Shown here piece after piece: positions 1-2,312 of a DNA stretch of 58,175 nt (its first letter is position 1; every line of letters starts with the position of its first letter). The notes under the pieces are model-generated. The model searched no databases, was not told the origin of the DNA, and saw only the letters and a program-made list of their open reading frames with translations. The stretch is from Candidatus Magasanikiibacteriota bacterium. GTDB lineage: Bacteria; Patescibacteriota; Patescibacteriia; Magasanikbacterales; UBA922. Location: NCBI GenBank assembly GCA_003518365.1, contig DOYU01000013.1:12974-71148 (forward strand), written 5' to 3'. Made by a program: the position numbers and the translations under genes.

Positions 1-2312
1 ACATGTTCTGGTCCGCCGAGATAAAAATCTACTGGCATCCATGTTTTCAGTGCTTCTGGTGATGCGAATGCTTCCTCATTGTGTGGATCAAGATACCGGA
101 AAAAATACCACGATGAACACATGAACGTATCGAGCGTATTTACTTCTCTTTTCCATCCTTCTCCGTACATTTCTTCGATACCAGCCTGGAATGTTTTTGA
201 ATACGTCAGTGGCGACTGTCCGGTTGGTTTGAAATCTACGTCTTCTGGAAGTAATACGGGAAGATCTGAGAATGGAACAGGTTTGACACCAGTCATCAAG
301 GCTTCTTCAAGAAGTGCTGGAATCTCAGCAACCATCAGATGTCGCTCAGACAAATCAACTTCTACATGTCTTGCATGCAAGAGTGATGACAGCGTATCAA
401 TGTGTTCTTTTTTAATAGTGACATGCTTTGCATCTGAAATTATTGAAATTGCGTCAGCGTTTGCTGCAATTTTTTCAAAATCAAATACAAAGGAATCACT
501 TGCCGTAACATCGAGTCGCTCTCCGTCGTTAAACTCTGGACGCAAGACAGAATCTGCGAGAATAAGTTTTGAAATCGGGATTTCAAGCGCTTCGAGAATA
601 CGAAAGGCGACAGGACCACCAAGACTATGCGCAATGATAACCGTGTGTTCATCGAAGGTCACTTGTTTTTTCAAAAATTCTGCTTGTTCTTTTACGTTTG
701 GTTTGTCTGTGTTTGGCAAATCGAGTGCAACGACTGTGTGACCTTTTTCTTCAAGTTGTTTTTTTAACCATGGAAAAAAGTTTGCCTCTGCATTTCCACC
801 ATATCCATGAATAAACACATATTGTTTATTGCTTATTGATAATTGTTCATTGACAACCATCGGCAGTGGCGCACCCCAAAATCGCTGACGTGACACAGAC
901 CAATCTCGAAGTTTATACTGAATTTTTCTTTTTCCGATGTTGTGTTCTTCGAGCCAGTCGATCATTTTTTCTTTTGCATCTTCTGTTGTGAGACCGTTGA
1001 GAAAGTCGGAATTAATGGCATGACCATGTTTCCCTACAAATGTAAATAATGATTGTCCATTCTTTTTAAGAATATCTGTATACTGATATTGTAAACTAGT
1101 TATGAGATCTTCAATATAAGTTTTCCCTTCATTTAATCGAATCACAAATTTCAAAATTACATCATTTTCTTTTAGCATTTCATAGTCTGGTTCAACTACG
1201 TGTCTGATTTTAATCACTGATTCAGTTTTATACTTCGGATTACTATTAACAAAATCGACAAACTCAAAATCACGCTCGTCATGCGCTGGCACAGCCATAA
1301 TAGCTCCCGTTCCATACGTTGCAATGACATAGTCTGCTATCCAAATAGGGATCTCTTCGCCATTGGCTGGATTCACAGCTTTCACACCTTTGAGTTCTAC
1401 TCCTGTCTTTTCCTTTTGTGTCTGGCGTTCTAGCTCTGTTTTCTTTGATGTTTCTGTAATGTAGGATTCTACATCGTTCCAATTTTTTATACTTCCTTTC
1501 AATTCCTGCACATACTGACCTTCTGGTGCAAGTACCATGTACGTCGCACCAAACAATGTATCAGGACGAGTAGTGAAAACAGTTATTGTTAATTTTGAAT
1601 TTGAAATTTTGAATTCTATTTCCGCCCCTTCCGACTTCCCTATCCAATCACGCTGTCTTTTCTTCGTCTCCTCTGGCCAGTCGATACGATCCAGCCCTTC
1701 GAGAAGTTTTTCTGCGTAGTCGGTAATTTTCAAATACCACTGTTCCATGTCTTTTTGAACAACAACAGTATCACAGCGTTCACAGTGTCCATCTACGACT
1801 TGCGCGTTTGCTAATACGGTCTTGCAACTGTCGCACCAGTTCACGGCTTGTGTTTTTCGATACGCAAGTCCTCGCTCATACATGAGGAGAAAAAACCACT
1901 GGGTAAATTTGTAATACTCAGGATCACTCGAACGAACAAATCGATCCCAGTCGACAGAGACACCAAGTTTTTTTACTTGTTCCACAAAATTCGCACCGGT
2001 TTCATCTATCGTTTGCTTTGGATGCACATTTGTTTTGATAGCATAATTTTCTGCAGGAAGCCCAAACGAATCTAGTCCAAACACTTGCAACACATTCTTT
2101 CCTTTCATGCGTTGATACCGTGCATAAATATCACACGCGGTATACACTTCTGCGTGTCCAACATGAAGCCCACTGCCAGATGGATATGGCAACTGTGGGA
2201 GGACATAAAACTTATTTTCTTGTGCCGAATCTTTTGGCGTCGAGAATGTTTTATTCTCTTCCCAATAAGATTGCCATTTAGCCTCTATTGATTTTGGATC
2301 GTATTTCTGCAT
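1..2312 (-). CDS. leuS: leucine--tRNA ligase, C-terminus beyond window edge; contains an inserted alpha/beta serine-hydrolase domain
   Basis: Absent from the ORF track because it has no stop in the window. Manual translation from the ATG at 2312..2310 gives [36 protein letters not shown]. It also shows a CxxC..CxxC zinc knuckle, [18 protein letters not shown] and [13 protein letters not shown] (CP1 editing), [24 protein letters not shown] and [18 protein letters not shown]. The frame was hand-checked stop-free over 1-1260. Confidence 0.9.
   Translation of the reverse strand, partial: [770 protein letters not shown]

Follow-up and report, generated by a model that had tools for sequence, protein, structure and literature searches.

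The leucyl-tRNA synthetase (LeuRS) gene leuS, at the left edge of a 58,175-nucleotide stretch of DNA from a Candidatus Magasanikiibacteriota bacterium (GCA_003518365.1, contig DOYU01000013.1, positions 12,974 to 71,148; this whole stretch is the window hereafter), encodes a complete bacterial synthetase that carries an entire serine hydrolase nested in frame within its catalytic body. Here we show that the insert is a complete, independently folding, lid-less α/β hydrolase of the YdeN/RBBP9 family (PF06821), that it is old and that purifying selection acts on it as strongly as on the synthetase around it. Similar unions are common in LeuRS of the candidate phyla radiation (CPR), in which long insertions fall almost without exception at three positions of the enzyme and have brought in several unrelated enzymes. 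The conservation of the catalytic residues, the repeated joining of this hydrolase family to LeuRS and the position of its closest free-standing relatives beside leuS lead us to propose, tentatively, that the hydrolase is a module working for LeuRS, and we weigh this proposal against the reading that it is a passenger in a tolerant host.

Few enzymes have been studied as closely as the aminoacyl-tRNA synthetases, whose accessory domains for editing, tRNA binding and signalling have been catalogued for decades. We found no literature description of a LeuRS with an inserted α/β hydrolase, NUDIX or other enzyme, in CPR bacteria or elsewhere. Annotation pipelines label such proteins mechanically, as in the JGI product name 'leucyl-tRNA synthetase/predicted alpha/beta hydrolase family esterase'. 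The sequence-only reading of the window, in which the insert was first pointed out, took the architecture to be undescribed; this stands with respect to the literature, and has to be given up in so far as it implied a unique protein, the architecture being common in CPR bacteria and automatically annotated in databases. Uniqueness had also been suggested by a word-indexed search with the insert, which returned two free-standing proteins, but full-length and exhaustive HMMER searches gave hundreds of relatives. Both the synthetase and the fold are known; their combination is new and recurrent.

A complete hydrolase nested in a complete synthetase

Within the window, leuS is a single stop-free frame that runs off the left edge after 770 codons; it is on the minus strand, which the sequence-only reading left unmentioned. 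The full gene has 1037 codons; the C-terminal 267, which lie beyond the edge, are supplied by a near-identical contig (GCA_000996965.1, LCEK01000011.1; protein P0003, locus L081) that differs at 1 nucleotide in 2310. Despite being cut at the edge, the window open reading frame (ORF) reaches 662.1 bits with the NCBIfam equivalog TIGR00396 (leuS_bact; cut-off of 548.4), in agreement with its first identification as LeuRS, and Pfam and NCBIfam models of the class I synthetase core match it as well. Motif conservation was judged on an alignment of 69 insert-bearing and insert-less relatives, in which the HIGH signature (HVGH) and the KMSKR motif, the latter seen in the full-length twin P0003, are invariant. 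The canonical CP1 editing domain, also noted in the first reading, is present, and its TTRPDT and AHDERD motifs are intact and (nearly) invariant in relatives with and without the insert. The anticodon-binding domain (PF08264) and the C-terminal domain lie outside the window in P0003/L081, which aligns to the end of Thermus thermophilus LeuRS. With HVGH, KMSKR, the CP1 motifs and both of these domains, the gene encodes a complete bacterial LeuRS.

Along its full length the enzyme is colinear with the solved LeuRS of T. thermophilus (1H3N, 2BYT), Escherichia coli (4AQ7) and Neisseria gonorrhoeae (7NUA), with which it shares HIGH, KMSKS, CP1, anticodon-binding and C-terminal domains, and it differs from them by 185 extra residues in the hairpin of the second zinc module and by a disordered filler in CP1. 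Unlike the T. thermophilus enzyme, this LeuRS and its insert-less relatives have no leucine-specific domain: at residues 806–817 of P0003 (L081), beyond the window edge, the sequence LILGPDGRKMSKR passes from LILG straight to RKMSKR, where T. thermophilus LeuRS has residues 580–636 (about 57 extra). The ligand cysteines of the second zinc module are likewise missing from the window enzyme and its insert-less relatives, a loss that is shared with E. coli LeuRS. The CP1 filler (residues 357–429) cannot be aligned even with relatives that are 70–85% identical; its GC content is 0.29–0.33, its residues 386–422 are predicted to be disordered (predicted local distance difference test (pLDDT) <50) and it may be the decayed remnant of an earlier insert.

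The two LeuRS core motifs that flank the hydrolase stand 188 residues apart. At the same place, insert-less relatives of the lineage have a 9-residue loop and read PMLQNEE-GEMKPVP; the NE and G on either side are thus residues of the ancestral loop, which leaves residues 490–674 as the strictly inserted piece, beginning with Q after NE and ending with MT before G-V. Deleting this piece in silico leaves a remainder that is colinear with the solved LeuRS structures without a break, which bears out the close spacing of the two motifs in E. coli LeuRS, about 15 residues, that was given in the first reading. The aligned segments (PMVHCEACGVVPVP in T. thermophilus and PIVHCEKCGNVPVP in N. gonorrhoeae; E. 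coli is also colinear) place the insertion point at the tip of a hairpin, between PMV and VPVP. In T. thermophilus this site is the first CxxC knuckle, from His438 to Cys442, of the second zinc module, which is named Zn2 (PMC9424281). The hydrolase interrupts the catalytic body, as was first read from the translation; that it might be a normal, lineage-wide CP2 or zinc module was rejected, given the short hairpin at this site in insert-less relatives and solved LeuRS structures alike. In an AlphaFold2 (AF2) model of the full-length protein (pLDDT 86.4, predicted template modelling score (pTM) 0.82), the insert and both linkers have pLDDT values of 92–98, and the linkers (92–95) form a short two-stranded stalk, a modelled geometry that suggests a fixed attachment of the hydrolase to the LeuRS core. 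The insert is translated as part of LeuRS and is probably kept in the mature protein.

Taken alone, the insert scores above the curated cut-offs of the Pfam models Abhydrolase_1 (40.7 bits, E = 2.9e-10), Abhydrolase_6 and Ser_hydrolase (PF06821; 29.4 bits, cut-off of 22, E = 9e-7). A profile built from 46 inserts finds Bacillus subtilis YdeN (3.1e-31) and human RBBP9 (2e-20) as its best solved relatives in the PDB. The AF2 model of the insert (pLDDT 95.8, pTM 0.93) is matched by Foldseek, again within the PDB, to YdeN (1UXO; TM score of 0.84, root mean squared deviation of 2.1 Å) and RBBP9 (TM score of 0.80–0.83), the next matches being lidded hydrolases at 0.66 or lower. The first assignment to this family thus proved right, and the peptides quoted for it (HGYGG, FPWLK, AHSLGG, SD and ERH) are all present in the translation. 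With YdeN (1UXO) and RBBP9 (2QS9, 7OEX and 9FCR) the domain shares the lid-less α/β fold of around 185 residues, the HG motif, the G/A-H-S-x-G elbow and the C-terminal histidine; it differs in being nested rather than free-standing, in an identity of only 20–26%, in a proposed acid placed three residues upstream (Asp627) and in that the Glu108 position of RBBP9 is not conserved. Searches of Pfam, NCBIfam, PDB sequences and PDB folds matched the insert to α/β hydrolases only, and to no known editing fold (CP1, INS/YbaK, AlaX/ThrRS-N2, DTD or PheRS B3/B4).

Catalytic residues were compared across 189 related domains that are 25–85% identical. The HG dipeptide after strand β1 would, by analogy with other α/β hydrolases, be the oxyanion-hole motif, and the nucleophile elbow places the nucleophile at Ser563. 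The SD and ERH peptides had been offered at the outset as the possible rest of a Ser-Asp-His triad; this was right for the histidine, His658, which is present in every aligned domain, but the acid is not where the family has it, as His630 occupies the canonical S-x-N-D(-P) column of the window insert and the proposed acid, Asp627, stands three residues earlier at a strand end. Among the 68 tabulated inserts that share the Zn2 site (model position 443, below), this earlier column holds Asp in 49, Glu in 6 and Ser in 13, and 12 of the 13 inserts with Ser keep the canonical Asp three residues later. Acid relocation occurs in α/β hydrolases, and the alternation of the two columns makes Asp627 a candidate relocated acid. 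As read from its sequence, the insert is probably an active hydrolase.

Apart from the near-identical contig, the same domain is found at the same site in an 85%-identical gene from a separate assembly (GCA_002788415.1, in a cluster whose members are named Candidatus Magasanikbacteria) and in dozens of more distant LeuRS genes, which rules out a chance match and answers the initial call for a survey of related genes. Around half of the 120 best LeuRS homologs carry an α/β-hydrolase Pfam domain, and a hydrolase lies inside leuS in 19 of the 80 loci that a single-protein query returned from GTDB species representatives, among which the window's own genome is not included. The architecture recurs across many assemblies and samples that are independent of one another (NCBI, JGI, ENA and Logan) and belong mostly to Candidatus Magasanikbacteria, with identity to the window grading from 85% to about 50%. 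An assembly chimera or mis-called gene, in which a hydrolase ORF was artificially joined into leuS, is an a priori concern with metagenome assemblies and nothing more, and this recurrence, the 19 GTDB species representatives, the continuous reading frame and junctions that fall exactly in a surface loop make it a negligible one. Measured against the 85%-identical homolog, at a synonymous divergence (dS) of around 0.75, the insert has a ratio of non-synonymous to synonymous substitution (dN/dS) of 0.126, and the remainder of the gene one of 0.139. There is no step in GC content at the insert, and no flanking, terminal or target-site repeats. A plus-strand ORF antisense to it (79..741; 220 codons, TTG start) has no family match and was taken as spurious.

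Insertion sites, guests and hosts

For a map of where LeuRS of this kind accept foreign domains, a hidden Markov model was built from 27 insert-less LeuRS, all long relatives were aligned to it and insertions of at least 40 residues were located; almost all lie at model positions 236, 369 and 443. Position 236, in the first hairpin of CP1, holds a Ser hydrolase or, in P0057, an in-frame IS200-type Y1 transposase domain (E = 5.4e-14). Position 369, which follows the AHDxRDxEF motif of CP1 and in the window is taken up by the filler, holds a NUDIX domain (around 140 residues), a methyltransferase, a HAD domain or a Ser hydrolase, and position 443, the Zn2 hairpin, holds a Ser hydrolase as in the window. 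Whole enzymes other than the hydrolase stand in frame in P0005, P0010, P0068/P0105, P0057 and P0131, at model positions 236, 272 and 369; the guests are NUDIX (very common), HAD phosphatase and S-adenosylmethionine-dependent methyltransferase, often together with a Ser hydrolase.

Among LeuRS whose cores are 67–85% identical to that of the window, all four states occur: no guest, NUDIX only, hydrolase only and both. The hydrolases at site 443 fall into at least four sequence clusters and those at site 236 into at least six, with free-standing forms interleaved among the clusters, and two hydrolase subtypes sharing only 23–27% identity are found at one and the same site in LeuRS that are themselves 74% identical. 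This hydrolase family has therefore been joined to LeuRS on many separate occasions, and at one site one subtype has been replaced by another. Metagenome-assembled genomes labelled Woesearchaeota, Pacearchaeota or Iainarchaeum contain a bacterial-type LeuRS with a site-236 hydrolase (L004, L008, L011, L012 and L015; GTDB loci), which reflects either horizontal transfer between CPR and DPANN or else mis-binning or mislabelling. The label 'uncultured Gammaproteobacteria', borne by several loci of a similar kind, also looks unreliable.

Free-standing copies of the domain (around 185 residues) are abundant in CPR and DPANN. The genes of the closest ones looked up (P0130, P0139 and P0272; 33–39% identical to the insert) all lie on the same strand as an insert-less leuS and upstream of it, in one locus separated from it by a few nucleotides (Table 1). 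These three leuS-adjacent hydrolases are 41–52% identical to one another and their LeuRS 47–56%.

Other hosts emerged when the insert served as the query and the 150 best cluster representatives were classified. Proteins of at most 230 residues, either free-standing or fragments, account for 82 of them, LeuRS for 53 and other hosts for 6, with 9 unclear, such that LeuRS is the host in 53 of the 59 identifiable nested cases, a list that the LeuRS-derived query biases. SecA, TsaD, Der/EngA, UvrA, AlaRS and ValRS occur as hosts once each (sequences P0128, with L095 2838..6542, P0168, P0178, P0184, P0187 and P0188). In L095, the SecA with its nested hydrolase forms one uninterrupted frame of 1235 codons only when UGA is taken as a sense codon, and gene calls there are fragmented; the contig probably belongs to a lineage with recoded UGA (code 4 or 25). 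Copies in different host proteins, or at different LeuRS sites, are 36–46% identical at their nearest. End-to-end fusions with NUDIX, peptidase S51, a glyoxalase/bleomycin-resistance fold or aminoglycoside 2''-adenylyltransferase occur among more distant members of the family; such fusions and tandems are seen in P0260, P0261, P0234, P0268, P0150 and P0167, the last two of which carry two tandem hydrolase copies.

What the hydrolase may do

Within the family, an activity has been defined for RBBP9 alone, which is an aminopeptidase dependent on a free α-amine (PMC8866121). By homology, the nested hydrolase would also cleave an acyl group bearing a free α-amino group from an ester or amide, and it may have been recruited as a second hydrolytic site, independent of CP1, that serves LeuRS. 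Foremost among the roles that we can envisage would be the clearing of wrong aminoacyl products, such as mis-acylated tRNA-Leu and aminoacyl-adenylate-like compounds; second, the freeing of leucine from peptide N termini, in an organism that has to scavenge amino acids; and third, the destruction of inhibitors that mimic aminoacyl-adenylates. We lean towards this reading, a module working for LeuRS, because of the family and fold, the conserved catalytic residues, the dN/dS ratio, the stalk-like attachment to the core, the repeated unions with LeuRS and the leuS adjacency of free forms, because AlaRS, ValRS and TsaD are among the other hosts, and because of the chemistry of the family, in which RBBP9 is an aminopeptidase and one free-standing relative carries a fused S51 peptidase. 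Adjacency and repeated independent union also strengthen the suggestion of extra proofreading or moonlighting with which the sequence-only reading had closed.

Several observations weigh against such a module. In the profile alignment, the column of Glu108, which anchors the amine in RBBP9, is variable; Asp596 and Arg599, near this column, are conserved in the subtype of the window insert. The nested domains are strongly acidic (net charge of −12 in the window insert and −8.4 on average at site 443, compared with −6.3 in free forms) and no more basic than the free forms, unlike what would be expected of a tRNA-binding module, and an adaptation of the nested hydrolase to tRNA binding was rejected on this charge. 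Acidity, together with nesting in SecA, UvrA, Der and TsaD, also weakens the proofreading or moonlighting idea. The more distant free-standing homologs that were looked up do not lie near leuS, and a hydrolase ORF is found in the flanks of none of the 57 insert-less leuS loci from GTDB. The CP1 editing motifs are fully conserved and no editing gap is evident; a hydrolase that replaces a degenerate CP1 was therefore rejected, and the domain is not compensating for lost CP1 editing. Nesting in SecA, Der and UvrA and fusion with NUDIX, glyoxalase and aminoglycoside nucleotidyltransferase point to a generic house-cleaning enzyme, and as the hot spots also take unrelated guests, from NUDIX, HAD and methyltransferase to the IS200-type transposase, LeuRS may be merely a permissive scaffold.

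These last points lead to the alternative of a passenger, which we regard as somewhat doubtful and nonetheless nearly as likely as a module working for LeuRS. The domain would be a generic esterase that serves CPR and DPANN cells in small-molecule house-cleaning or detoxification, with an activity unrelated to leucylation; LeuRS, and now and then another large essential protein, would offer it tolerant loops and constitutive expression, and the fusion would be kept since its loss would mean losing a useful enzyme. A passenger accounts for the diversity of hosts, including a SecA with an intact frame, and for the diversity of guests in the same LeuRS loops, and it is consistent with the end-to-end fusions, the abundance of free-standing copies, the acidic domain and the intact CP1. 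It accounts less well for the closest free forms looked up, all three of which adjoin leuS across a deep divergence, for the predominance of LeuRS among the identifiable hosts in the query-biased list, and for the replacement of one subtype by another at the same site.

A selfish in-frame cassette, meaning a mobile element in loops of essential genes from which excision would be lethal, is very unlikely. Such an element would follow an intein-like strategy without splicing, and the distribution does resemble that of inteins, with discrete hot spots in many conserved essential proteins (synthetases, SecA and UvrA) and patchy presence among LeuRS of 67–85% core identity; the Y1 transposase domain at hot spot 236 of one LeuRS is a further point in its favour. 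Unlike inteins, however, the insert lacks a Hint fold and splice-junction residues and does not match HNH or LAGLIDADG homing endonucleases, and it is itself an enzyme under selection, with conserved catalytic residues for which a purely selfish spacer would have no need. An identity as an intein or transposon was rejected on the missing junction residues and endonuclease and on the lack of terminal or target-site repeats and of any compositional anomaly, and as copies in different hosts are no more than 46% identical, recent mobility can be discounted.

We give equally little credence to a non-catalytic module, a structural or binding platform for tRNA, a partner protein or the host cell surface in which the triad is a relic. 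The acid that has left its canonical position to His630 would fit a relic, but serine in 188 and histidine in 189 of the 189 domains, the conserved HG motif, an acidic residue that nearly all copies keep in one or the other of two columns, and a dN/dS of 0.13 speak for retained catalysis.

For the module working for LeuRS, parallels exist among known synthetase systems. The YbaK/ProX/INS editing family of ProRS is nested in the catalytic domain in some lineages and free-standing in others, and deacylates mischarged tRNA-Pro. The hydrolase repeats this pattern, nested at three LeuRS sites or free-standing just upstream of leuS; it differs in its unrelated fold, in having hosts other than synthetases and in that INS/YbaK function is demonstrated, whereas the window hydrolase is known from sequence and model. 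Immunity to microcin C involves the enzymes MccE (GNAT) and MccF (serine peptidase), the latter a serine hydrolase whose substrates are mimics of aminoacyl-adenylates. The NCBIfam family NF040702 (isoleucine--tRNA ligase, N-acetyltransferase domain-containing) is similar in joining an extra small-molecule catalytic domain to a synthetase, and its match to the window ORF is weak and runs through the shared class I core; both NF040702 and MccE/MccF differ from the present case in folds and positions. A more ambitious synthesis, on balance unlikely to hold as a whole, would make the nested hydrolase a new, fold-unrelated clean-up domain of a synthetase, which deacylates mis-acylated tRNA-Leu or aminoacyl-adenylates or destroys adenylate-mimicking antibiotics, and at the same time one piece of a hitherto undescribed CPR/DPANN habit in which whole small-molecule enzymes (Ser hydrolase, NUDIX, HAD and methyltransferase) are built in frame into a small number of fixed loops, in LeuRS as in other essential proteins, the cassettes being exchanged over time.

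Genomic context and implications

The 58-kb window contains no second hydrolase and no second leuS. Upstream of leuS, two paralogous inositol-monophosphatase-family genes are followed by a small ORF and a dehydrogenase gene (Table 1), a gene order that is kept in L081 and L082. Three large ORFs have no Pfam family at E ≤ 1e-5: 54060..57782 (minus strand, 1240 residues), 26015..27595 (minus strand, 526 residues) and 10412..11812 (plus strand, 466 residues). The remainder is ordinary chromosome, with genes for IF-2, RNase Y, PBP2, a subtilase, an ABC exporter, glycosyltransferases and an O-antigen ligase.

Table 1. Features of leuS, its insert and its neighbourhood in the window, and leuS-adjacent free-standing hydrolases in other loci
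Feature	Coordinates	Strand	Basis or remark
leuS, bacterial-type leucyl-tRNA synthetase, codons 1–770 of 1037	1..2312	−	Translation; TIGR00396; full-length twin P0003/L081
HIGH signature HVGH, class I active site (aa 50–53)	2154..2165	−	Invariant in 69-sequence alignment
CP1 editing domain, PF13603-matched part (aa 221–356)	1245..1652	−	PF13603, E = 3.6e-53
Threonine-rich motif FTTRPDT, in CP1	1557..1577	−	(Nearly) invariant in relatives with and without insert
AHDERD motif, in CP1	1269..1286	−	(Nearly) invariant in relatives with and without insert
Variable AT-rich filler inside CP1 (aa 357–429), at hot spot 369	1026..1244	−	pLDDT, GC, alignment
Conserved LeuRS core motif directly N-terminal of insert (aa 469–487)	852..908	−	Translation, alignment to structures
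YdeN/RBBP9-type α/β serine hydrolase, limits of the sequence-only reading (aa 488–675)	288..851	−	Pfam, PDB profile, AF2, Foldseek
Strictly inserted piece (aa 490–674, 185 residues)	291..845	−	Insert-less relatives and solved structures
HG dipeptide after strand β1 (aa 502–503)	804..809	−	His 183/189, Gly 175/189 aligned domains
Nucleophile elbow AHSLGG (aa 561–566)	615..632	−	G/A-H-S-x-G elbow of PF06821
Ser563 codon, nucleophile	624..626	−	Ser 188/189 aligned domains; invariant in A1
Asp627, proposed catalytic acid, strand end	432..434	−	Three residues before canonical Asp position
His658, catalytic histidine near C terminus	339..341	−	His 189/189 aligned domains
LeuRS core resumption after insert (aa 676–692)	237..287	−	Translation, alignment to structures
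Two paralogous inositol-monophosphatase-family genes, upstream of leuS	2421..3215 and 3196..3999	−	
116-aa ORF between these genes and the dehydrogenase, upstream of leuS	within 2421..5755	−	
Glu/Leu/Phe/Val dehydrogenase, upstream of leuS	4496..5755	−	
tRNA-Glu(CTC) and tRNA-Met(CAT), 17 nt apart	17308..17472	+	Only Rfam and ARAGORN matches in the window
Free Ser_hydrolase and insert-less leuS, L083	224..766 and 773..3202	Same strand	7-nt gap
Free Ser_hydrolase and insert-less leuS, L090	3645..4172 and 5498..6580	Same strand	About 1.3–1.4 kb apart
Free Ser_hydrolase and insert-less leuS, L091	298..834 and 2100..3677	Same strand	About 1.3–1.4 kb apart

The hydrolase-bearing LeuRS of the window is no one-off. 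The architecture is conserved and selected, and it has arisen several times at three loops of the enzyme, in alternation with NUDIX, HAD and methyltransferase domains. Action on aminoacyl esters or adenylates would make the hydrolase a proofreading or self-protection site of a new kind; with peptides as substrates, it would tie the scavenging of amino acids to the charging of tRNA in organisms that are unable to make amino acids. If it is instead a passenger, it would show genome-reduced symbionts packing enzymes into their essential genes, and the insertion-tolerant loops that receive them would be useful for the engineering of LeuRS.

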